A DNA stretch of 14,092 bases from a virus (IMGVR_UViG_2541047894_000002:1-14092); one strand, 5' to 3'; shown: positions 2,324 to 13,207, numbered from the stretch's first letter. Made by a program: numbers and translations. Notes: generated from the letters alone by a model not told the origin.

Positions 2324-2812
2324 TCAGAACAGCCCTTTAACTGAACTGGCCGCGTTGTTAATGGATGCTGTCACCTTATCTTTGAAGCCGGACAGCATAT
2401 CGCTGAACGATGAGGATTGCAGGCGCTCCCGCAAATCCTCATCACAGCGTTCAAGGGTCAGTGAAAATTCTATCTTTTTCGCCTTACCGTAGCGATCAAA
2501 CTCGGAACTGGTCGTATTCGTTCCGGTCAGGACATACATGCCGTAAATCTGCCCGACGCCATCAATAAGAGGCCAGGGGCGTCCTGTATACGCCTGCGTG
2601 GTCAGCAGCGACAGCGACACTTCGCCACCTGTAATTTCAGGATAAAGCACACCAGAAAGAACAATACGATCATCGCCTGCCCCGATATACTGCCAGCTTG
2701 CTGAACGGTTAACGCGTTCATTTTTCACATGTCGCCAGCTTTTATTTTGCTGTAACTGCTGATGCGGCAATGTGCGCAGCTCAAAAACAAACATGCCGTA
2801 GATCATCATCAT
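2324..2812 (-). CDS. U: Tail protein gpU-like
   Basis: Translation MMMIYGMFVFELRTLP...SWRH...GAGDD...LSGVLYPEITGG...WPLIDG...IYGMYV...TTSS resembles P2 gpU as recalled. ORF track start 2818; GAGGAG RBS abuts the first ATG, so the ATG at 2812 (8-nt spacer) is preferred. 6-nt gap from T stop (2825). Confidence 0.8.
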   Translation of the reverse strand: MMMIYGMFVFELRTLPHQQLQQNKSWRHVKNERVNRSASWQYIGAGDDRIVLSGVLYPEITGGEVSLSLLTTQAYTGRPWPLIDGVGQIYGMYVLTGTNTTSSEFDRYGKAKKIEFSLTLERCDEDLRERLQSSSFSDMLSGFKDKVTASINNAASSVKGLF

Positions 2813-2824
2813 GGCCATGACTCC

Positions 2825-5641
2825 TCAATCTTTATCGTAAAAACTGCCACGCCCGGCACGGGCGCGCCGTTCCATTTCTGCCCTGACCATTTCACCGACC
2901 AGTTTCGCTAGTTCGCGGGGATTCTGTGTAACAACGTTATGCAGATGAACATGAATTTCACCGCCAAATCCGGAGGCAACAGGTTCCCGGTTACGGGAAG
3001 TTGCAGGAACTGATGCCACTGGCGATCGTATGGCCTCCGCCACCGGGCGGGAGCTGGCCGCAACAACAGGGACCAGCGCCGGAGGCAGCGGAGCCGGAAC
3101 CACGGGTGTGATATTAATTGCGGTGGCAGGCTTACTGACCTGCGCAATCTTCCGCTCCTGCCACTCCCCACGAACAACAAGTGCGCGGGGCAGGTTCTTA
3201 AAGACAATATCGCCGGGGCCAATGCGTTTTTTCGTCTCATCAACCAGCTTACCTGTGTTATCAGCAATTTTGCTGAGTCTGCGTAGCGTCCCGGTATTGC
3301 TGTCTGTGAGCGGTTTATTGTCTTTGGGTTTATCACCTCCGGTGCCATTGCCATTTTCCACAGGCTTCGGCGGATTGATTTTCGCCAGGTCCCCCTGAAG
3401 CAAGGCAACCTTGTCCTGAAGAATGGCCGCACGCTGTGCGTCTTCGATTTTCTTTCTCGCCCTTTCCGCTTCATCCGGAAGAACACCGAGTTTTTCAAGT
3501 ATCCACGCCAGCGTATCCAGCAACATTTTTGCAGGCGTCAGAACAAGCTGTAACGCGCCACCAAGAACGTTACCGAATATCTCGCCAGCACTGGTACATT
3601 TATCCAGCGTTTCCTTGCTGGACTCCATCGGTGACAGCAGCGATTTGAACCAGTTAAACACCTGGCTGATCCCGCTTCCGATTGCGTCAAAAACAGGACC
3701 AAACTGTTCAAAGGTTTCGCGCAACGGGATCAGCCTTTCCATAATCCCGCTGAACACCCCGGCAAAAAATGCCCTGATGGGATCCCAGTATTTCGAGATA
3801 AGAACGGCAGCTCCGGCAAGCGCAGCCACGATAAGACCAACCGGACTGAATAGCGCCCCGATAGCACCTCCCAGCAAAGAAACGGAACCCGTCACCATTC
3901 CCCATAGTGCTGGCAGGACCCTGACAGCATTCATTGATCCGGTCAGGAGAGAAAAACCAAGACGCAGTTTTGCCAGCGGGCCAGCAAGCACACCAATAGC
4001 CAGCGACAACGAGCCAACCGTTGCAGTCATTGCCAGCAACGCACCGCCTGCTATCAGTAGCTGGCGCGTCAGTACCGGATGGGCCTGCGCCAGCGCCGTC
4101 ACCCTTGATACCACCCACGTGAGCCACTGCGTGACAGAACGCAGCGGACCGTCAATCAGATCTGCAATGCGGATGCGCAACCCTTCCCATGCACTGCCGA
4201 GTGATTTCAGATCGCCGTCAAGGTTGTTGGCCATAACCTTTGCTGTGCGTTCAGCCTCACCGCGCGCGCCTTCAAGTTCTTTTCTCAGTTTGGGTAAGGA
4301 ACCGTCACCCGCTGCATCAACGAGCGCCATAAACGATGTGAAAGCCTCTTCTCCGGCAATGTCCTTAAAGAACGATACCCGGTCAACTTCCCCGTATTTG
4401 CGGGTGGCTTTATAAAGGTCAGCCAGCACATCCTCCATCGGGCGCATTTTGCCGTTCGCGTCAGAGACTGCCACACCAAGCTCTTTCAGCGCCTCTGCTG
4501 CTGCCTTTGGCGGTGATGCCAGACGAGCCAGGCTGGCACGCATTGCCGTCCCGGCATCACTCCCTCTGATACCCATATTCGCCAGCACGCCCGCCATCGC
4601 TGCGGCCTGCTCCAGCGATATTCCCAGCTTACCCGCCACCGGACCTGCATATTTCATGGTTTCACCCAGTGCGCGAAGGTCAGTGTTGGTACGGGTAAAC
4701 GCTGCGGTGAGTGTGTCACCGACCCGGTCCATCTGGTCAGCAGAAAGGCCGAACTGCGTCAGGATATTTGAGCCAATATCTGCCGTCTCGCCGAGATCCA
4801 TACCGCCAGCCGTTGCCATGCTCAGCACGCTGGGAAGCGCAGCCTGAATGGCCTGCGGAGTGAAGCCAGCCATTGCAAGAAATGCCTGTCCACTGGCGGC
4901 ATCGCCTGCGGTAAACTGCGTTTCAGAGCCAAGTTTTAACGCCTGCTCACGCAGCGCCTTAAACTGCGGGCTGTTCTGGTCGATTCGCGTCAGTGCCTGA
5001 ACGCGGGACATCTCTTTGCCGAACCCGATCGCAGGCTGCAAAAAACGCCCCGCAGCATAGCCGCCCGCCGCTGCCGCACCAATTGCCAGCGCACCACCTG
5101 TTTTCAGTTTTCCCGCAGTTTCCTGCGCGCGCGAATACCGCTCACGCGCCCGCGTTACACGCGCAAGTGCCTGCCGTTCGCGTTCAAGCTGGTTGTTGTA
5201 CTGTTCGGTGCGTCTGATGGCCTGCTGGATGGTGTTATCGCTGCCTGTCAGGGAAATGCCGTGGCGTTTCAGCTCTCCGCCAAGCTCCCGCATTTTCTGA
5301 ATTTCCCGTGTGCGCGATTCATTCAGGCGTTCAAGCCGGGTGCTTAACTGCTGCATCAGCTTTTGTTGCTTTTCGCTGAGCACTGTACCCGTGCGTTGTA
5401 ACTGATTAAGGGCGTTAAGCTGGCGTCGTGCTTTCACGATACCCGCATCCGCTTTACTGACAGCGTCGCGGGCGCGCTCAAATGAACGCGCCTGACGCTC
5501 GAGATTTTTGATCGCCCCCTGCGTTCGCTGGATGGAGTCACCAAACTGCCCCATCAGGCGGCGGGCGTTTTCGGCAGGCCGGGTCAGCCTGTCAACGGCG
5601 CTGAAAGCGACCCGGATATCAAGAGTCTTCATTGTCTGCAT
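2825..5641 (-). CDS. T: Tail tape measure protein (gpT-like), about 939 aa
   Basis: Large Ala/Gly/Leu-rich protein with coiled-coil N-terminal part and hydrophobic glycine-rich central segments, downstream of the E/E' chaperone pair as in P2-type tail modules. Start ambiguous: ATG at 5641 (MQTMKTL...) or 5632; ORF track reports upstream extension to 5668. Start overlaps end of E'. Confidence 0.85.
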   Translation of the reverse strand: MQTMKTLDIRVAFSAVDRLTRPAENARRLMGQFGDSIQRTQGAIKNLERQARSFERARDAVSKADAGIVKARRQLNALNQLQRTGTVLSEKQQKLMQQLSTRLERLNESRTREIQKMRELGGELKRHGISLTGSDNTIQQAIRRTEQYNNQLERERQALARVTRARERYSRAQETAGKLKTGGALAIGAAAAGGYAAGRFLQPAIGFGKEMSRVQALTRIDQNSPQFKALREQALKLGSETQFTAGDAASGQAFLAMAGFTPQAIQAALPSVLSMATAGGMDLGETADIGSNILTQFGLSADQMDRVGDTLTAAFTRTNTDLRALGETMKYAGPVAGKLGISLEQAAAMAGVLANMGIRGSDAGTAMRASLARLASPPKAAAEALKELGVAVSDANGKMRPMEDVLADLYKATRKYGEVDRVSFFKDIAGEEAFTSFMALVDAAGDGSLPKLRKELEGARGEAERTAKVMANNLDGDLKSLGSAWEGLRIRIADLIDGPLRSVTQWLTWVVSRVTALAQAHPVLTRQLLIAGGALLAMTATVGSLSLAIGVLAGPLAKLRLGFSLLTGSMNAVRVLPALWGMVTGSVSLLGGAIGALFSPVGLIVAALAGAAVLISKYWDPIRAFFAGVFSGIMERLIPLRETFEQFGPVFDAIGSGISQVFNWFKSLLSPMESSKETLDKCTSAGEIFGNVLGGALQLVLTPAKMLLDTLAWILEKLGVLPDEAERARKKIEDAQRAAILQDKVALLQGDLAKINPPKPVENGNGTGGDKPKDNKPLTDSNTGTLRRLSKIADNTGKLVDETKKRIGPGDIVFKNLPRALVVRGEWQERKIAQVSKPATAINITPVVPAPLPPALVPVVAASSRPVAEAIRSPVASVPATSRNREPVASGFGGEIHVHLHNVVTQNPRELAKLVGEMVRAEMERRARAGRGSFYDKD

Positions 5642-6148
5642 TCCCGCTGCGAAGTGCCGCCCGCTCACGCCAGCTAACCACTTCGCCGGGCGTCATCATG
5701 AAGATTTCGGCGGGCGACCAGTTAAAAATAACGGCAATATCTGCCACAAAGTCTTCTATGTGCTCAAAGCACACAACCGTGATCAGGCTTCCGTCGCCTG
5801 TTCGTTCTTCCCGCCAGAGTCCGCACCGCTCAAAAAATTTACGGCAACCACACATAACTGAATAAAGTCACGGGATGCCATTTTTTTGATCGTCACTTCA
5901 TCCAGTCGCGGTGATGTCACGCGTGACAGCAGCGTAAACATGGATTCCGCTTTCAGATTCAGCACATCAGACAGCGACAAATCTCGCAGAGATCCAGCCT
6001 GCTCAATAGCTCCGGTGATCTCCACATACGTGATTTTTTCGCCGCCTCGCTCAATTGGTTGGGTAAGTTTTACGCCACGCTCACTGGTTTCTTTCACAGT
6101 GTCAGCAACGACCGTGTTTTCGGTATCGATGTTTTTCGTCTCTTTCAT
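5619..6148 (-). CDS. E+E': Tail assembly chaperone E+E' fusion produced by programmed -1 ribosomal frameshift (predicted about 176 aa)
   Basis: ORF 5619..5855 lies in the -1 frame relative to E (start coordinates 6148 mod 3 = 1, 5855 mod 3 = 2). Slippery heptamer T_TTT_TTG occurs in E in the correct register (0-frame codons aaT TTT TTG at - strand 5837..5831). After the slip the reading continues ...NFF-ERCGLWREERTGDGSLITVVCFEH... to the TGA at 5621-5619. Confidence 0.6.
5783..6148 (-). CDS. E: Tail assembly chaperone gpE-like (121 aa, 0-frame product)
   Basis: Located between tail tube FII and tape measure T as in P2; AAGGAG RBS 8 nt upstream of ATG at 6148; contains the frameshift heptamer near its 3' end. 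Confidence 0.8.
   Translation of the reverse strand: MKETKNIDTENTVVADTVKETSERGVKLTQPIERGGEKITYVEITGAIEQAGSLRDLSLSDVLNLKAESMFTLLSRVTSPRLDEVTIKKMASRDFIQLCVVAVNFLSGADSGGKNEQATEA
5831..5837 (-). other. Programmed -1 frameshift slippery site TTTTTTG (P2 E/E' type)
   Basis: + strand caaaaaa at 5831-5837 = - strand TTTTTTG; in-frame as T_TTT_TTG relative to the E reading frame; -1 frame open downstream for 70 codons. Confidence 0.6.
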
Positions 6149-6202
6149 CAGGAAACTCCTTTCAGTCAGAGGCGACGCACTGCGCCGCCTGCATATTACT
6201 TA

Positions 6203-6715
6203 TCAGCCAAGCCCGAGCGCAGAACGGATGCGATCGGGCACAATGTCCTTGCCGTCCTTCCGGTAAATGAAGTTCAGCAGGTCAATCTCCCACAACGGGC
6301 GATCGTTAACACTCAGCTTGTAGTAGGTGTTTTTAATGGCGTAAGTGTGTGATGTGGCTTCGCCCTGTTTGGCTTCCCCCATATCAATTTCCGTCACACG
6401 TCCGCGCATTTCGACTTCATACAGGTCGCTTTCTGCATCGGTGTAATATTCACCCGCAAAACGCAGCAGCGTGCCGTCAATCGTGCCGCCATACTTAAGG
6501 AACAGCTCACGAACTGCGCCCCCCATGACAAAGCTCGCATCAAGCGCGGAGTCGTCCAGACCGAGATCAATACTTACCGCACCCATCATGCCACCACCCC
6601 GGTAGCTGTCGGTTTTGCGCGTCAGCTTAGGCAGAGTGACGGACGTCACCTTACCCACTTCGTTTTCACCATCCACAAACAGCGTAAAAAAGCGAAGATG
6701 TTTTGGCACAGCCAT
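6203..6715 (-). CDS. FII: Tail tube protein (P2 FII-like)
   Basis: MAVPKHLRFFTLFVDG...VTLPKLTRKTDSYRGGGMMG...DLGLDD...RFAGEY...VEMRGR..EID.GE.KQGE matches the P2 FII pattern as recalled; GGGAGG RBS; start overlaps FI stop (TGATG). Confidence 0.85.
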   Translation of the reverse strand: MAVPKHLRFFTLFVDGENEVGKVTSVTLPKLTRKTDSYRGGGMMGAVSIDLGLDDSALDASFVMGGAVRELFLKYGGTIDGTLLRFAGEYYTDAESDLYEVEMRGRVTEIDMGEAKQGEATSHTYAIKNTYYKLSVNDRPLWEIDLLNFIYRKDGKDIVPDRIRSALGLG

Positions 6716-7899
6716 CAGGCACCTCCCAGCACCGCAAATGCGGGTTCAAAGTATTCATCAGTAAACGTCTGGTAAAGCTCCATGTCTTCCAGTGGCGGAA
6801 CGGGCGTATATTTGTAGCGAATACGCACACGTCCCTGACGTAAATCCGTGGTGCTGTTATCCACCACGTCATACCAGCACTCCGCGCCAATCAGTTTCCC
6901 GGCAGTAACCAGTGAATCCAGTTTTGCCCTGATGGCACTGATAACATCCTTCACGTTCGCAGGCGTCAGTGGACTGTCGATGGTTTCAAACTGCGCTTCC
7001 GCAATTGAATCAGCCAGCACCTGTGCGGTTCGGGTATACACCTCAAAGATGTAGGCGTTCGTTTCCGGTGTGCGGTTGCCCCAGAAGCGGAACCCGTTGC
7101 GACGAATAATGGTCGTGATTTCTTTGTTGTTAAGGCTGTTGGCATCACTGTCTTCGGCCTGCAACGACCAGAAAACATGCCTCGACATCCCCAGCACATT
7201 TTTAACCGGAACGTTGGACAGCGATTTGTGCCATCCCTGCTCATGGTCAATGTACGCACGAAGGCCGCACGCATAGGCAGGCGCGGGGAACGTTTCGTTT
7301 TTGCCACTTTTCGGGTTGTAGGCGATGAAGTCCGGCCATAAGAGCATCACCTCACGTTCGTTGAATTTCTGGCGGTAGGTAATCGCCGCAGCCATCGTGT
7401 TACAGCCGTGACATGAGGCATACACAAACGCGCGCAGTTTACCTGCAATCACGCACAGGGATTTTGTTACAGCCTCCGTGTCCAGCTCCGGCGCGGCCAG
7501 AATACGCGGACGGTATCCGATGCTTTCATCCTGCTCTGCAACAAGCAGCGCATACATCCCCGTATAGCTGCCGTCATCCTCAGAACCACCGATAACCAGT
7601 TGATCCTGCGTCTTTCCGTCTTCTTCTTTGTGTTCAGCCACGCGAACGACGATCACCTTTGTGCTCACCTGGTCTGCGATGGCCTTAAGCGCACGATAAA
7701 GCGTCCCCGTTGTCCCGCATTTTCCCAGCACGTCATTGACGCGGGTCAGCAGTGTGGGCTTGTTCAGCGGGAACAGCTTCGCGTCCGCATCATCCGCCGT
7801 TGCCACGATACCGATAACGCTGGAATCAACATCGTTAATCGCTGTTACCAGGTCGGTATTTTCCGTAACACGGGCACCATGAAAACGAGTTTCACTCAT
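6715..7899 (-). CDS. FI: Contractile tail sheath protein (P2 FI-like)
   Basis: 394 aa; motifs ...FPLNKP...LRAFVYASCHGC...WPDF...EQGWHKSLSNV...IRRNGFRFWGNRT...NYTRTAQV...RYKYTPVPPLE... match P2 FI sheath as recalled; AAGGGG RBS 8 nt upstream of ATG at 7899. Confidence 0.9.
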   Translation of the reverse strand: MSETRFHGARVTENTDLVTAINDVDSSVIGIVATADDADAKLFPLNKPTLLTRVNDVLGKCGTTGTLYRALKAIADQVSTKVIVVRVAEHKEEDGKTQDQLVIGGSEDDGSYTGMYALLVAEQDESIGYRPRILAAPELDTEAVTKSLCVIAGKLRAFVYASCHGCNTMAAAITYRQKFNEREVMLLWPDFIAYNPKSGKNETFPAPAYACGLRAYIDHEQGWHKSLSNVPVKNVLGMSRHVFWSLQAEDSDANSLNNKEITTIIRRNGFRFWGNRTPETNAYIFEVYTRTAQVLADSIAEAQFETIDSPLTPANVKDVISAIRAKLDSLVTAGKLIGAECWYDVVDNSTTDLRQGRVRIRYKYTPVPPLEDMELYQTFTDEYFEPAFAVLGGA

Positions 7900-8056
7900 A
7901 GCTTCAGCCCCTTGTATCCGTTAAATGATTCGGCAACAATCATCACCCACCACGCGCGTAATCTCACCCCTGCGCCGTTCTCCCGCCACGGCGACAACAA
8001 AAAGCAGTAACCCCCTACGCACGCACATGCGACCATGCCGCACAGGGAGGGAACAG
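7900..8056. promoter_or_regulatory. Divergent intergenic region between FI (-) and D (+); presumed promoters for both
   Basis: 157-bp non-coding gap flanked by divergently oriented start codons with RBSs on each side. No exact TGT-N12-ACA (Ogr/late-promoter type) dyad found by eye; only one TGT in the region (7913-7915). Confidence 0.3.
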
Positions 8057-9166
8057 ATGACCGATACCACCATGCAATTGCTCAGTCAGAGCACAGACCC
8101 CGTGAAAATGCCGGATTTTGATATTCTCGCGGAGGGGGAAACACTGTCCGGCGTGGCAGAGCGCCTGATGAGCCTGTCACTGACCGACAACCGGGGATTT
8201 GAAGCGGACCAGCTCACCATCACGCTGGATGATGCGGATGGTCAGTTGCAGCTACCGCCACGGGGCGTGCGCCTGACGGTTCTCATTGGCTGGAAAGGAG
8301 AACCGCTGACAGAAAAAGGCACTTACATTGTTGATGAAATCGCTCACGAAGGACCGCCGGACAGGCTGACGGTTTCAGCCAGAAGCGCAGATTTTCGGGA
8401 TGAATTTAACGTTAAACGTGAGGTGTCCTGGCATGATGTGACCGTTGAGCGCGTGGTATCCGCCATCGCTCATCGGTATGGTCTGAAACCGCAAATCAGC
8501 GAAATGCTGATGGATATAGAAATCGACCACGCCGACCAGACCGAAGAAAGCGACATGTCCTTTCTTACGCGCATGGCGGAAATGCTGGGCGCAATCACCA
8601 CAGTAAAAAGCGGTAATCTGTTATTCATCATGCCCGGTGGTGGCGTGAACGCACAGGGCCAGCCGTTGCCATCGTTCGCCATCACACGCAGCAGCGGCGA
8701 TCGCCATCAGTTCCGCATTGCTGACCGCGAGGCGTATACGGGTGTACGCGCCTACTGGCTTGATCTTAATTACGGGAAAAAGAAAAAAGTCAGCGTGAAA
8801 CGCCGCAAACCGCAAAAACCCAAAAAGGAGAAAAGCAGCAGCCGTGAAGGTGATTATATGGAAGGCGCGGAAGGCAACGTGTTTGTGTTACGCAAGACTT
8901 ATCAGAACGAGCAGGCAGCAAGACGCGCAGCGGCGGCAAAGTGGCAGCAGCTACAACGCGGAGCCGCAGCGTTCTCCATCACACTGGCACGTGGACGCGC
9001 AGAACTCTACCCCGAAATGCATGGCACGGTAACAGGATTTAAAAGCGAAATTGATAATCAGGACTGGATTATTGCAAAAGCCGAGCACACCATTGATAAC
9101 AGCGGCTTTACCACGCAGCTTGAACTTGAGGCAAAAATCCCGGAATGGATAGCAGAAACAGCTTGA
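8057..9166 (+). CDS. D: Tail protein D (P2 gpD / phage late control D family)
   Basis: 369 aa from ATG at 8057 with GGAGGG RBS 5 nt upstream; motifs LSLSLTDNRGFEADQL.I.LDDADGQ, SARSADFR, SWHD.T, FLTR.AE, ITRS.GDRH.F.IADR.AYTGV.A.W, lysine-rich KKKKVSVKRRKPQKPKKEK linker, REGDYMEG..NVF, FSI.LA.GRA, NSGFTT.LELE match gpD as recalled. ORF-track N-terminal extension from 7925 rejected. Confidence 0.85.
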   Translation: MTDTTMQLLSQSTDPVKMPDFDILAEGETLSGVAERLMSLSLTDNRGFEADQLTITLDDADGQLQLPPRGVRLTVLIGWKGEPLTEKGTYIVDEIAHEGPPDRLTVSARSADFRDEFNVKREVSWHDVTVERVVSAIAHRYGLKPQISEMLMDIEIDHADQTEESDMSFLTRMAEMLGAITTVKSGNLLFIMPGGGVNAQGQPLPSFAITRSSGDRHQFRIADREAYTGVRAYWLDLNYGKKKKVSVKRRKPQKPKKEKSSSREGDYMEGAEGNVFVLRKTYQNEQAARRAAAAKWQQLQRGAAAFSITLARGRAELYPEMHGTVTGFKSEIDNQDWIIAKAEHTIDNSGFTTQLELEAKIPEWIAETA

Positions 9167-9334: not shown

Positions 9335-11374
9335 TCAACTTTGCCAATCATCAGCTATCTGTTGCCAATTAACTTTCCGAGGTTCTTTTGTAGTGCTAGA
9401 CCACACATCCCAAAAATCAGGATCATCAGATTGCGGTCGTTGTTTTTCAGTAAGCTCTTTCATTCTAACTAAAACAGGAAGTTCTGAAGCCCATCCAAGT
9501 AAAATAGCATGCCTAGATGGTAACGATGGCAGCTCTCTCAACAGCCCTCTCATATTATCTGGAACAAGTCTATGTACTTGCTCTTGATCTCTATCATTAC
9601 TAATCCTGTGCAACAAAAAAGTATTACATTGAGATAAAACCGTCGGAGATAGCTCTGATGGCCTTTGGGAAGAAACAACAAGGCCTAGCCCAAACTTTCT
9701 TCCTTCCCGTGCAATCTTTTCAAACACCTTGCAACATATATCAGAGACTGACTGAGTTTCACTATCTTCCTTGTAACGTTTAATAAACGTATGCGCTTCT
9801 TCTGCAACTAAAACTGTTGGTAGCGGCCTTCCATTTAATCTTCGATAACGTTGTAGTGCTTCAAAAGCCACCCTAGAAATTACAGCTGTTACCAAATGAA
9901 TTATTTCATTTGGTACTAGAGATAAATCTATAACAGTTATAGATCCTTGTTCATTTTTACCGAGAAAAGTGTCTAACCAATTAGTTAAACTTATAGGCTT
10001 TACAGAATCATTGGTTACTGCACTAATACGAGTGTCACCTAGCATTGTTCGAATACGAGTCAAAAGAAACTCAACGAATTGTTCTGTACCTGTTTCTTGA
10101 GCCAGAGCTTCGAGATATGCGACAAAATCATCGCCTTTAAAACGCATAGGCGCATCTTCGCTTTTTGGAAGAAGTTCTTGTTCATCTCCCCCTAGAGCTG
10201 TATATGCATCTCTGAATCCATTAATCAACAACTCAATCTCGGAAACAACAGGCTTTGCTGGCCAAGAAGATCCACTTCGTGAAGAAAGATACGTATTTAT
10301 TGTGTTTATTAGCTTATCGAGCGATTTATCAACAATTCTCTCGTTTAAGATAGAAATACTATCTCTCCAAGAACCCAAAGTTTCAACCAAACCTTTAGCA
10401 GATCCACTATTCACATATATCTGACCTTGACTTGCCTGCTGTCTCATAGATACAAGAAGGATACCGCAAAAGCGTTTGGCTTGAATTTTCACATCATCTT
10501 CTGATAGAAGATTATTCCTCATTGCCCTCAAAGCACGACGTAGTAAAGGAAGTTGCACCTTTGAACTTGCTTGAGTGAAAGCAGCCCACTCAGAACTATT
10601 CCATAACCATGAAGGTACTTTAAGATCCATCTCTCCGACATCGATGTTAGCCTCTACACGTAATAGTTTACCCTTATATCTTGATTCTGGCCCTAAAGCT
10701 CTACTATATTCTCCGTTCGGATCAAGTATTATAAATCGAGCATTTGGAGATTTTCCCTGTTGTAAAACAGCATCAAGAGACCATTGAATTAAGCCGGCCA
10801 CCGAACATGATTTACCACTACCCGTATTACCTAAAACAGCTATATGTCGTCCGAAAAGTCTATCGGGGTCTACTTTTATTTCAGCATTGTTAGCTAGGGG
10901 GCTATCCCCTATTTTTACCCTTCTATTATCACCTGATTCAATTATTGATTGTAATTGTCGGTCAGTAGGCAAAAGCACAGAGTCACCAACCGAAGGGAAA
11001 GCATCAGTTCCTCTCGTGAACCTGAAACCTTCGTTTTTTCTATCAACTCTCAATGTACCAACTGGATTGATACTAAGCTTTTTAAGTGGGAAAGGAAGGT
11101 CTATCAACCCAAAATCTTGTAAGCCTCTTCTTTTGGGATATGGCGAGTTTTCTATTGCAATCCACTCAACTTGCCCAACAAGAAACCCGTCATCACTACG
11201 GATTAAAATATAACTATTTATTCTAGGAAAATTACGAGGCGCCCCACCTTGAAGTGATACTGAATCAGGAGAATCAATCTCTAAAGACACCCTAATTTCA
11301 TTAGGTGATACAAACTCAACAGTTCCAATTCTTAGTTGTTCTATTTTTTCTATTGGTAAATAACTCATTGTCAT
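9335..11374 (-). CDS. HerA-like (FtsK/HerA superfamily) ATPase, partner of SIR2 protein
   Basis: Walker A HIAVLGNTGSGKS; Walker B-like PTVLVAEEAHTF; GLGLVVSSQRPSEL (arginine-finger region typical of HerA/DUF87); N-terminal beta-rich region (GTVEFVSPNEIRVSLEID) consistent with a HAS-barrel. ATG at 11374 overlaps upstream stop (ATGA); GAGGT abuts that ATG, so ATG at 11368 (6-nt spacer) may be the real start. Confidence 0.8.
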   Translation of the reverse strand: MTMSYLPIEKIEQLRIGTVEFVSPNEIRVSLEIDSPDSVSLQGGAPRNFPRINSYILIRSDDGFLVGQVEWIAIENSPYPKRRGLQDFGLIDLPFPLKKLSINPVGTLRVDRKNEGFRFTRGTDAFPSVGDSVLLPTDRQLQSIIESGDNRRVKIGDSPLANNAEIKVDPDRLFGRHIAVLGNTGSGKSCSVAGLIQWSLDAVLQQGKSPNARFIILDPNGEYSRALGPESRYKGKLLRVEANIDVGEMDLKVPSWLWNSSEWAAFTQASSKVQLPLLRRALRAMRNNLLSEDDVKIQAKRFCGILLVSMRQQASQGQIYVNSGSAKGLVETLGSWRDSISILNERIVDKSLDKLINTINTYLSSRSGSSWPAKPVVSEIELLINGFRDAYTALGGDEQELLPKSEDAPMRFKGDDFVAYLEALAQETGTEQFVEFLLTRIRTMLGDTRISAVTNDSVKPISLTNWLDTFLGKNEQGSITVIDLSLVPNEIIHLVTAVISRVAFEALQRYRRLNGRPLPTVLVAEEAHTFIKRYKEDSETQSVSDICCKVFEKIAREGRKFGLGLVVSSQRPSELSPTVLSQCNTFLLHRISNDRDQEQVHRLVPDNMRGLLRELPSLPSRHAILLGWASELPVLVRMKELTEKQRPQSDDPDFWDVWSSTTKEPRKVNWQQIADDWQS

Positions 11375-12783
11375 ACCTCAACTTCGGCTGAATTACCTAA
11401 CTCTTTGAACTGCATAAAGCCTCTTTGTTTGAGCAACTCTGCCATCTTGATTGATGCTTTATCAATAGCTGGTTTAGGTAAATAGTTATCAACTAAAGTT
11501 TTGAAGTCTCCTAAATGATCTCCCATCAAAAGGGTAATCTGTGCTTTTCTTCCACTATTACTAATGAAACGCATAATTCTGCCAAGTGGATCGCCAAAGG
11601 CTATTATTACTATATGAGTGGAAGGTACCGTAAGCATGTCTTCAATTACTCTATTGATATGCTCATCACCAAAGCTATAACCATAAGTGACTAATGTGCT
11701 ATTTGGACGGCTAGTTGCTGCTGCCAGATCTCGAAATAGCTCAACATAAGGATACTCGGCTGTTTCTCTGTCTTTTACTGAATTAGGGTAAATCATCAGT
11801 TTTTCATAGCCATTGCTTTGATGACCTTCGGCTTCCAAAAACGGCTCAACAGAACGTGCTCCAAAGGGTAAGCCAAAGCGCCTAATCGCATTATTTTGTT
11901 CATGCCAATCAAGGGAACCATGAAGTTTAGTAAAACGTGCCACGCCCTCCAAGTATCTTGGTTCACCACGGATTCCAGGAGGATTATAATGATAATCAAC
12001 TTCTAATCTTGAGGATCGAAATACTGGAGCAATACTTCCTACAAAGCGATCAATAAGTCTTAAACCAGCAAGCTCAGCACCCACTTCAATAATACGGTCA
12101 TAATTTGTTGTAAAGATATGTAGCCTATCGCGAGTGGCAGTTCTACTTGCAAAGCTCATCAAAAAACTAACTAGATAGTTGAAAGTTTCCTCTTTCCGGG
12201 CTGGTTCAGCAGTTTTGATTAAATATTCTCCTTTAATTATAGATTTAGAAAACTCCCCCAAGCATCTAGAAAGCTCGCCTTTGAGCTCGCCCAAGTCTGC
12301 TTTTAAGTTTCTATAAGCAGAATAAGGAGGTGGCGGATTTTCTGGTTGAGGAGTATTTAACACCGTTAAAATTTCGAGACCTTTAATAAGTTCATTGATA
12401 GTTCTAATTTGATCTTCTATATTTCCTCTATCGCGACCTGCAGCTTTTGCAGCCTGAGTGGAAAATTCATCTATTTCGCTTTTACATACTTTTAAATCAT
12501 TAATCCACCCCATCCCTACTGGAGATAAACCTGTAGCTGATTTTTGAATAGCCGAGCTTAAGCCTGCACCGATTAATAAATTTAAATGCTCTGATTGGAA
12601 GAGAGCTGTTAGCCAGGGCTCAATATTTTGGCGCAATTTCTCAATTGATATTTCTGCCCCCTGTTCTCCCCATACACAGTTCTTCGAGAGGATAAAAGGA
12701 TGAGAATCAGCATGCTCGCCAGAATTAGATGATAGATCAATAATTTCTGATATACTGCCAACTTTTATATGTTGAATACTCAT
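11371..12783 (-). CDS. SIR2-family (SIR2_2 / DUF4020-like) protein, predicted NAD+-consuming effector
   Basis: Motifs in order: LNLLIGAGLS (Gly-rich NAD-binding loop), IFTTNYDRIIE (TTNYD), KLHGSLDW (catalytic-His region), YGYSFGDEHINRVIEDM. ORF track start at 12843 is TTG; ATG at 12783 (MSIQHIKVG...) preferred but weak SD, so start is uncertain (12783-12843). Stop overlaps HerA start. Confidence 0.75.
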   Translation of the reverse strand: MSIQHIKVGSISEIIDLSSNSGEHADSHPFILSKNCVWGEQGAEISIEKLRQNIEPWLTALFQSEHLNLLIGAGLSSAIQKSATGLSPVGMGWINDLKVCKSEIDEFSTQAAKAAGRDRGNIEDQIRTINELIKGLEILTVLNTPQPENPPPPYSAYRNLKADLGELKGELSRCLGEFSKSIIKGEYLIKTAEPARKEETFNYLVSFLMSFASRTATRDRLHIFTTNYDRIIEVGAELAGLRLIDRFVGSIAPVFRSSRLEVDYHYNPPGIRGEPRYLEGVARFTKLHGSLDWHEQNNAIRRFGLPFGARSVEPFLEAEGHQSNGYEKLMIYPNSVKDRETAEYPYVELFRDLAAATSRPNSTLVTYGYSFGDEHINRVIEDMLTVPSTHIVIIAFGDPLGRIMRFISNSGRKAQITLLMGDHLGDFKTLVDNYLPKPAIDKASIKMAELLKQRGFMQFKELGNSAEVEV

Positions 12784-13207
12784 AAATGCACTTCTTTTAT
12801 TTGTGTTAAAAAACATACTTTTGTAGAGGCAAACGAGTGCCAAGAGTATGAAACTTAGCGATTAAGTTCGAATCTTACACCTCCCAAAGCCTCTGAGAAT
12901 TATCAACCTAACCCAAAGGAACTCAATCAGCGTTTTATTTTAGCACGACTAAATAACTAGTAGATAGCGTCAAAGACAAACCGGGGAGATAAAAACTTAC
13001 AACACTGCCACCAGTAAAATCATCTACATACCAACAAGTTGCCTTCAATCACGTAGAATAATCCTACTAGTGCATAGTCAATCTCGACTACTTACTCAGT
13101 GAAAATTCAACTGCAAACTTCTGGTTTTTACTCAAAGCAAGCAGTTAGTTGGAATCAGTATTAGTACAACTTAGAATAATAGAAACACCACGTTAAGGGA
13201 GGTCGCT

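Follow-up and report, generated by a model that had tools for sequence, protein, structure and literature searches.

The closest described counterpart of the locus analysed here is the E/E' gene pair in the FETUD tail operon of phage P2, where, according to Lynch et al. 2010 (PMC3091744, with reference to Christie 2002 and Xu 2004), a shift on TTTTTTG that has no hairpin downstream yields E of 91 aa and E+E' of 142 aa. Tail-chaperone frameshifts produce the short protein in excess over the long one, and neither is present in the virion (Atkins et al. 2016). Lambda gpG/gpGT, with G_GGA_AAG as the heptamer, are likewise encoded by two overlapping ORFs between the major tail and tape measure genes; lambda is a siphovirus, whereas the phage considered here has a contractile tail, and the likeness is one of gene layout, and the heptamers differ. 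The dnaX, IS911 and IS3 signals of E. coli share the X_XXY_YYZ heptamer with tandem tRNA re-pairing, but depend on an SD-like element before the heptamer, on a hairpin or pseudoknot 5-9 nt after it, or on both; we find no such stimulator here or in relatives. The site described below is an ordinary, already known feature, which adds a lineage to the conserved tail-chaperone frameshift (Xu, Hendrix & Duda 2004), and we conclude from sequence comparison that a programmed -1 frameshift of the P2 tail-chaperone kind very probably joins E to E'.

The window, by which we mean the whole 14,092-nt stretch of viral DNA that was analysed (IMGVR_UViG_2541047894_000002:1-14092), shares ~99% identity with coliphage P88 (Xuanwuvirus, Peduoviridae), and its tail operon, FI-FII-E/E'-T-U, is that of a P88-like E. 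coli prophage of this P2-related genus. The sheath and tube genes are followed by E/E', the tape measure gene and U, which places E/E' between the tube and tape-measure genes. All parts of the E/E' site lie on the minus strand, which the earlier note left unstated:

6715..7899, minus strand, tail sheath gene FI (PF04984, PF22671, PF17482)
6203..6715, minus strand, tail tube gene FII (PF04985 Phage_tube, 7.5e-47), immediately upstream of E
5783..6148, minus strand, gene E, zero-frame tail assembly chaperone of 121 aa, from ATG 6148 to TGA 5783 (ORF list, translation)
5783..5867, minus strand, overlap of 28 codons in which E and the -1 frame are both open; TGA 5870..5868 closes the -1 frame upstream and TGA 5785..5783 closes E
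5831..5840, minus strand, tandem slippery sequence A_AAT_TTT_TTG (direct reading, register script)
5619..5831, minus strand, E' segment, read in the -1 frame over 70 codons from GAG 5831 (ERCGLW...NEDS) to the stop TGA 5621..5619
2825..5632, minus strand, tape measure gene T (PF10145 PhageMin_Tail, 3.5e-58), start as in the P88 annotation
2324..2818, minus strand, tail gene U (PF06995 Phage_P2_GpU, 1.6e-38), downstream of T

Gene E has a ribosome binding site, GGAG 6159..6156, 7 nt upstream of its ATG, and matches PHROG 103 'tail protein' (3.2e-35); its match to Pfam PF10109 Phage_TAC_7 is weak (17.2 bits, cut-off 25), and none of the NCBIfam models matches E or the E+E' fusion. The E' segment matches Pfam PF06528 Phage_P2_GpE (5.9e-12, 45.3 bits, cut-off 23) and, over residues 1-68 of 70, PHROG 1756 (6.2e-39), so that the latter match begins at the first residue after the slip. 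A PDB sequence search with the family profile gives no meaningful match, the best being an unrelated designed protein (E-value 0.0094), and across the whole window no Rfam family attains its gathering score. The tape measure gene may start at ATG 5632, as annotated in P88, or at the in-frame ATG 5641; with the former start, the end of E' and the beginning of T overlap by 14 nt. We thus find, as the earlier note had proposed, a -1 frame that is open for 70 codons up to the tape measure start (TGA 5621..5619, ATG 5632).

Over its whole length, the conceptual fusion of 176 aa can be aligned with P2 gpE+E' (BLASTP 8e-26 overall, 31% identity over both halves), with the match spanning residues 23-106 of E. 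The window VNFL is aligned to P2 VGFL at the junction, and an alignment of 12 sequences has an almost invariant Phe at the slip site and invariant columns throughout E. P2, Wphi and 186 all have T_TTT_TTG at the aligned position and in the same register, and the GenBank entries for P2 and Wphi mark GGT TTT TTG as the place of a -1 shift, at the same heptamer and register as here. The likeness to P2, shared by Wphi and by orf51/orf52 of 186, extends to the order FI, FII, E/E', T and U, to the F-L pair, and, for P2, to the same Pfam domain in E', to an end of E' that runs into the start of T (by 8 nt in P2 and 14 nt here) and to the lack of a downstream stimulatory hairpin. Apart from the low identity (31%), there are differences of length: E is 121 aa here versus 91 aa in P2, its zero-frame tail past the slip site has 15 codons versus 6, and E' has 70 codons versus 57. 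An additional, overlapping A_AAT_TTT one codon upstream is found here but not in P2, and gene D, unlike in P2, is relocated in this genus to a position upstream of FI and is divergent.

The -1 frame is open only from 5867, which confines a workable shift to the last 28 codons of E. Within this region the E codons GTA AAT TTT TTG contain T_TTT_TTG (5837..5831) in the exact X_XXY_YYZ register of E, codons 104-106 being AAT (5839-5837), TTT (5836-5834) and TTG (5833-5831); direct reading and a script both bear out what the earlier note had said of this register. The second heptamer, A_AAT_TTT (5840..5834), also in the E register, is absent from that note. The bare motif TTTTTTG is ordinary, with 10 occurrences in the window versus 5.5 expected and 10 of 200 shuffles reaching 10, but the combination of a heptamer with a long open -1 frame is not: across the remaining nine genes of the window, an in-register heptamer is found at only 0.52% of codons, and at least 70 open -1 codons follow only 2.4% of codon positions (median 7). 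An A7 run (5889..5883) considered as an alternative slip site is off the X_XXY_YYZ register, and a -1 frame entered there reaches a TGA after 5 codons. Both heptamers are prone to shifting in E. coli reporters, which supports the competence of the motifs: UUUUUUG gives 0.118% unstimulated, 0.247% with the IS911 stimulators and 0.765% with the IS3 pseudoknot, and AAAUUUU gives 0.070%, 0.355% and 11.4%, respectively (Sharma et al. 2014, Table S3), such that unstimulated shifting is only ~0.1% for either heptamer, close to the background of 0.055% (Sharma et al. 2014).

Relatives were surveyed in phage records and IMG/VR, and a scan of genome contigs with E gave two loci, both near-identical. An in-register heptamer is present in every one of the 89 distinct E/E' overlaps obtained from 175 loci, and over the same 3882 codons we count 112 heptamers in register versus 7 and 12 in the other two registers. 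Seven loci outside this count (L009, L010, L011, L021, L103, L117 and L163), which are incomplete contigs or carry homopolymer indels, all have the slippery sequence on inspection. Other relatives use C_CCT_TTC or G_GGA_AAG; the latter, lambda's heptamer, is found in a Mannheimia relative of E. Among the codon changes between the window and the Shae_phiSM type, the E frame has 4 synonymous and 1 nonsynonymous upstream of the site and 1 and 7, respectively, downstream of it; the corresponding figures for the -1 frame are 0 and 5 upstream and 6 and 4 downstream. Synonymous change thus prevails in the E frame up to the slip site and in the -1 frame from precisely there on, and these substitutions point to purifying selection on the -1 frame immediately after it. 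Synteny, the GpE domain, the P2 alignment, the P2 and Wphi annotation, the 89 relatives and this switch in selection all agree with the earlier assignment of the site to the P2-type tail-chaperone frameshifts.

In the mechanism we propose, most ribosomes on E would terminate at TGA 5783 and release the 121-aa chaperone E, and a small fraction would slip back by one nucleotide on A_AAU_UUU_UUG (5840..5831), read 70 codons in the -1 frame and complete the 176-aa E+E' protein at a stop that lies 14 nt within the tape-measure gene. To judge from P2 E/E+E' and lambda G/GT, the E part common to both products may bind the tape measure protein and the E' domain may recruit the tube protein, with the efficiency of slipping setting a fixed, low ratio that would correspond to the need of tail assembly.

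The reading of E' as an independent small gene, expressed from GTG 5774 (51 aa) or ATG 5855 (78 aa) with no frameshift, is very unlikely. It draws on RefSeq/PGAP and several phage records, which list a separate protein:

5619..5774, minus strand, separate 51-aa CDS 'GpE family phage tail protein' with a GTG start (PGAP/RefSeq; P88, PhiR44_2 and E. coli MFDS1006657)

The GTG 5774 codon is also kept, as a Val codon, in the sister clade described below, and ATG 5855 is given by a mechanical ORF list. However, conservation of the -1 frame by substitutions of the synonymous type begins at the slip site, 19 codons upstream of GTG 5774, as does the PHROG 1756 match to E', whereas the -1 frame between ATG 5855 and the slip site, with 0 synonymous and 5 nonsynonymous changes, is not conserved, and the sister clade has GTG in place of ATG 5855. 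Neither start is preceded by a good Shine-Dalgarno sequence, and we find no promoter-like site inside E. In P2 and 186, moreover, no more than 3 codons of open -1 frame precede the heptamer, and both the annotation and the literature give the P2 product as a fusion. Because protein conservation and the synonymous-site pattern reach upstream of the GTG to the slip site, we judge the 51-aa CDS to be an annotation artefact that comprises only part of E', which is probably translated only as a C-terminal extension of E. That standard gene callers would miss E' or report it as a separate ORF with a spurious start at 5855, as the earlier note had anticipated, holds for the separate E' of RefSeq/PGAP but not for its start, which is GTG 5774; the 5855 start comes from the mechanical ORF finder.

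Slippage of RNA polymerase on the T6 run, which would add one U to some of the mRNAs and allow E+E' to be made by normal translation, is if anything less probable still. The slip site is a homopolymer run, and the length of the homologous run varies among IMG/VR relatives, with T6, T7 and T8 in L116, L103 and L117, respectively, which indicates that the run is prone to slippage at some level, in polymerases or in sequencing. A run of six T is, however, on the short side for efficient slippage by the polymerase. Against it also stand the sites reduced to T4 (AAATTTTATG) in 599 E. coli genomes and in ΦSM, an active phage, all of which still keep the -1 frame, the relatives with C_CCT_TTC or G_GGA_AAG, heptamers of the ribosomal kind that lack any long run, and the strict preference for a single register (112 versus 7 and 12), a signature of tRNA re-pairing that register-independent polymerase slippage would not leave. 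That chance alone brought a heptamer and an open -1 frame together here, with E' a non-functional remnant, is scarcely credible: TTTTTTG by itself is not enriched in the window, but homology, synteny, the 89 of 89 relatives and the apparent purifying selection on the -1 frame contradict such a view, and these comparative data have effectively refuted it already.

Searches for elements that might stimulate such a frameshift find none, which, like the near-background shifting of the unstimulated heptamers, is a point against it. The 91 nt past the site fold with z = -1.33, and no stem begins within 12 nt of it; in 77 distinct relatives, the downstream region has a mean z of +0.16, with none below -2. 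Inspection by eye of the region upstream reveals no AGGAGG-like, i.e., SD-like, sequence. A 201-nt segment folds with z = -2.89 as the A7 run (5889..5883) pairs with the U6 of the slip run, but we judge this upstream hairpin to be incidental, since the run is no longer than U4 in the sister clade and the helix would be melted by ribosomes in the course of translation.

The sister Xuanwuvirus clade, which includes Citrobacter phage ΦSM/Shae_phiSM and Escherichia phages 503458, 520873 and P88_4B11, has ~89-90% nucleotide identity to the window, the same E/E'/T layout, an invariant GTAAATTTT and a conserved -1 frame. Its site differs: it reads AAATTTTATG, in which T_TTT_TTG is gone and A_AAT_TTT is the only heptamer in register. 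Since this clade lacks T_TTT_TTG, the heptamer named in the earlier note cannot be the universal site of the lineage. Among complete E. coli genomes, the sister variant is present in 599 of 5426 and the window type in 820 of 5426. We tentatively suggest, as a possibility that we rate somewhat below its opposite, that the working site in P88 and Xuanwuvirus is the upstream A_AAU_UUU, or the two heptamers in tandem on A_AAU_UUU_UUG, rather than the U_UUU_UUG of P2 alone. What argues for such a role is that these 599 genomes and an active phage retain an allele with A_AAU_UUU only, that another lineage has a parallel tandem, C_CCU_UUU_UUG, and that AAAUUUU is the more responsive of the motifs in the reporters. 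By our estimate, both heptamers can act. Were this the case, two E+E' isoforms would be made that are one residue apart (…VNFF-ER… and …VNFL-ER…), and the ribosome would have two chances in succession to shift, in place of an RNA stimulator. The choice of heptamer also bears on the junction peptide, given in the earlier note as ...VNFFERCGLW...: this holds as a conceptual -1 translation and is what a slip on A_AAT_TTT, or a P-site-only slip, would predict, whereas the classical tandem slip on T_TTT_TTG predicts ...VNFLERCGLW...

The papers on P88 and ΦSM that were consulted contain no discussion of E/E'. The main value of the site is for annotation: 1374 of 5426 complete E. coli genomes, roughly one in four, have this exact region, for which RefSeq/PGAP and most phage records give a free-standing 51-aa E' or none, instead of the 176-aa E+E'. 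With E' listed alone or omitted, protein databases would be left without the real product, E+E'. The two alleles, A_AAU_UUU_UUG and A_AAU_UUU_AUG, are both common, and constitute a small natural experiment on the share of each heptamer in shifting without an RNA stimulator.

Gene E, which encodes the zero-frame tail assembly chaperone, very probably carries a P2-type −1 programmed frameshift in this P88-like prophage, extending E into the −1-frame segment E′. E has a GGAG 7 nt 5′ of its start codon, and its codons 103-106 read GTA AAT TTT TTG, so that T_TTT_TTG lies exactly in the X_XXY_YYZ register, as the earlier note had claimed and as direct reading and a script both confirm. The −1 frame is shut upstream by TGA 5870..5868, which makes the last 28 codons of E the productive region; downstream it is indeed open for 70 codons and finishes at the start of the tape measure gene, with a 14-nt overlap between the T start and the E′ end.

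Features of the tail region
7899..6715, minus strand: sheath gene FI
6715..6203, minus strand: tube gene FII
6148-5619, minus strand: the whole E/E′ feature
ATG 6148 to TGA 5783, minus strand: gene E, 121 aa
5837..5831, minus strand: T_TTT_TTG
G5831 to TGA 5621..5619, minus strand: E′ segment in the −1 frame, 70 codons, ERCGLWREERTGDGSLITVVCFEHIEDF...NEDS
5619..5774, minus strand: 51-aa RefSeq/PGAP CDS from GTG 5774, which lists E′ as a gene of its own, "GpE family phage tail protein" (WP_000333495.1)
From ATG 5632 (as in the P88 annotation), minus strand: tape measure ORF T (PF10145, 3.5e-58)
2818..2324, minus strand: gene U

Homology searches connect both halves of the 176-aa conceptual fusion to P2. 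Pfam Phage_P2_GpE matches fusion residues 135-170 (45.3 bits; cut-off 23), PHROG 1756 matches the 70-aa −1 segment from its first residue (6.2e-39), and E matches PHROG 103. The comparison with P2 E/E′ suggested earlier, run at the protein level by BLASTP, gives 8e-26 and 31% identity spanning both halves, with the junction V-N-F-L aligned on P2 V-G-F-L; the slip-site Phe is nearly invariant in a 12-sequence alignment of fusions with eleven relatives. In the P2 and Wphi records, the E+E′ coding sequence is annotated as joined across a −1 shift at GGT TTT TTG, and the T_TTT_TTG of the window is the heptamer of P2. E alone scores 17.2 bits against Pfam Phage_TAC_7, under the threshold of 25, and matches no NCBIfam model, so it is a divergent family member. 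This alignment, register conservation among relatives and a frame switch of selection support the P2-type reading.

We surveyed annotated phage records and IMG/VR contigs, with hosts including Escherichia, Citrobacter, Klebsiella, Salmonella, Serratia, Yersinia, Burkholderia, Mannheimia and Acidovorax; 175 analysable loci reduce to 89 distinct E/E′ overlap sequences, and all 89 hold at least one in-register heptamer within the overlap.

In-register heptamers (number of distinct overlaps)
TTTTTTG alone: 40
CCCTTTC: 18
AAATTTT + TTTTTTG (window type): 9
CCCTTTT + TTTTTTG: 7
AAATTTT alone: 4
TTTTTTA: 4
TTTTTTG + an additional in-register heptamer, other combinations: 4
TTTTTTC; TTTTTTT; GGGAAAG + AAAGGGC: 1 each

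Across 3882 overlap codons, 112 heptamers are in register versus 7 and 12 in the other two registers, and the 6705 E codons upstream hold 27. Such retention of register despite sequence turnover is the signature that a ribosomal −1 shift would leave. The slip-site T run varies among near-identical IMG/VR relatives, being T6 in L116 (1143-1148), T7 in L103 (1143-1149) and T8 in L117 (1143-1150), and the T7 of L103 joins E and E′ in a single frame; another relative, L021, has T4 in place of T5 inside E′ (about 1621). These variants may reflect sequencing errors in homopolymers or genuine slippage mutations.

Could the heptamer and the open frame coincide by chance? The bare TTTTTTG motif shows no enrichment in the window (10 matches versus 5.5 expected). 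In the nine other window genes, an in-register heptamer falls on just 0.52% of codons and at least 70 open −1 codons follow only 2.4% of codon positions (median 7), which makes the combination improbable within the final quarter of so short a gene beside the tape measure gene; the comparative evidence is far stronger than these statistics and excludes chance. Transcriptional slippage as the source of the frame change is disfavoured on three grounds: a T4 allele exists, relatives carry heptamers that are not homopolymeric, and one register is strictly preferred.

Initiation of E′ independently of E is likewise disfavoured, among other things by the frame in which selection acts. Between the window and the Shae_phiSM type, the seven codons before the site show 4 synonymous and 1 nonsynonymous changes in the E frame and 0/5 in the −1 frame, and the fifteen codons after it show 1/7 and 6/4, respectively; the numbers are small yet directional. 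Conservation of the −1 peptide ER.(.)LWREER.GDGS.IT begins at the first post-slip codon, which places the start of E′ decoding at the heptamer. ATG 5855 is GTG in the sister clade, the −1 frame downstream of it is unconserved, and the pattern argues against both ATG 5855 and GTG 5774 as E′ starts. We find no good Shine-Dalgarno sequence and no promoter for E′, and in P2 and 186 the −1 frame opens only 3 codons ahead of the heptamer.

No downstream stimulatory structure was found at the frameshift site: the 91 nt after it are no more stably folded than shuffled sequences (z = −1.33), a mean z of +0.16 with none below −2 is obtained for the 70 nt that follow the heptamer in 77 distinct relatives, and an Rfam search found nothing. 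This agrees with the published absence of such structure in P2-like phages and would imply a low shift efficiency; Lynch et al. 2010 (PMC3091744), summarising Christie 2002 and Xu 2004, describe a P2 shift at TTTTTTG that yields a 142-aa E+E′ beside the 91-aa E and has no downstream hairpin. A 201-nt fold reaches z = −2.89 only because an upstream A7 run (5883..5889, minus strand; E codons ATC AAA AAA ATG) base-pairs with its complement 46 nt downstream, the U6 slip run (5831..5837, minus strand). In the sister clade A7 is retained while the U run is just U4, which makes this pairing probably incidental. As a slip site itself, the A run is rejected, a −1 slip there stopping after 5 codons (KNGIP).

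The window holds two overlapping in-register heptamers, A_AAT_TTT and T_TTT_TTG. GTAAATTTT is invariant throughout the genus and the sister clade has GTAAATTTTATG, in which T_TTT_TTG is lost and A_AAT_TTT alone is left. This allele is neither rare nor defective: 599 E. coli genomes contain its 100-nt context, versus 820 for the window allele, and its bearer ΦSM is described as a temperate phage that is fully functional and becomes active spontaneously. In reporters (% −1 frameshifting; Sharma et al. 2014, Table S3), UUUUUUG gives 0.118 without a stimulator, 0.247 with IS911 stimulators and 0.765 with the IS3 pseudoknot, and AAAUUUU gives 0.070, 0.355 and 11.4, respectively; UUY A-site codons shift better than UUG (Sharma et al. 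2014). Given these data and the sister clade, T_TTT_TTG cannot be the lineage's universal site, and A_AAU_UUU is, in our view, a co-site at the least. Slips on the two heptamers would leave distinguishable junctions, ...VNFF|ERCGLW for A_AAT_TTT and ...VNFL|ERCGLW for T_TTT_TTG; the peptide quoted earlier, VNFFERCGLW, is the former, and the heptamer then named would yield the VNFL form.

Escherichia phage P88 (Xuanwuvirus, Peduoviridae) is 98.9% identical over the 1-kb region and the sister group (503458, 520873, P88_4B11 and Citrobacter phage Shae_phiSM) 88.8-90.3%; the region is present in 1374 of 5426 complete E. coli genomes, where PGAP annotates E′ as a free gene. Gene callers were expected to miss E′ or report it separately, and both occur: the Shae_phiSM, KSP20, RSA1 and ST79 records leave E′ out entirely, and the start used by PGAP and P88 records is GTG 5774, not the predicted 5855. 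Among the records inspected, only P2, Wphi, 186 and Milagro annotate the frameshift. The frameshift type is well known and the window example is unannotated and moderately divergent; only two points are mildly new, namely how widely E. coli RefSeq genomes misannotate it and the tandem or alternative heptamer.

Further neighbours are a tail-fibre assembly gene, a fibre gene, gpD on the opposite strand and an Ogr/Delta zinc-finger gene. In Xuanwuvirus D is divergent and upstream of FI, whereas in P2 it follows U. The mechanical D ORF (7925..9166, plus strand) begins at ATG 7925 and, at 413 aa, exceeds the 366 aa of the annotated P88 D, which probably places the true start near 8066, beyond the 7900..8065 region. 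Between D and ogr, at a variable hotspot of P2-like prophages, lies an anti-phage defence pair (9335..12843, minus strand), SIR2 (12843..11371; PADLOC 3e-155) and HerA (11374..9335; 3e-252); P88 has only hok/gef there and no such defence genes, and E. coli MFDS1006657 has the same insert, adjoining ihfA/pheT, with D truncated. The 54-nt FII-E intergenic region contains a GC-rich 8-9 bp hairpin, GGCGGCGC-AGU-GCGUCGCC (6171..6189, minus strand), with no following U tract and a fold z-score of only −0.94; at the equivalent position phage 186 has an annotated "partial terminator tI", a rho-independent terminator is annotated in a Mannheimia phage record, and the hairpin might keep E, T and U expression below that of sheath and tube. 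This enterobacterial prophage region also has a 95%-identical copy on a 226-kb contig (L008, NZ_JBQPOM010000071.1) labelled Vagococcus sp., a Gram-positive genus, which is probably assembly contamination or mislabelling.
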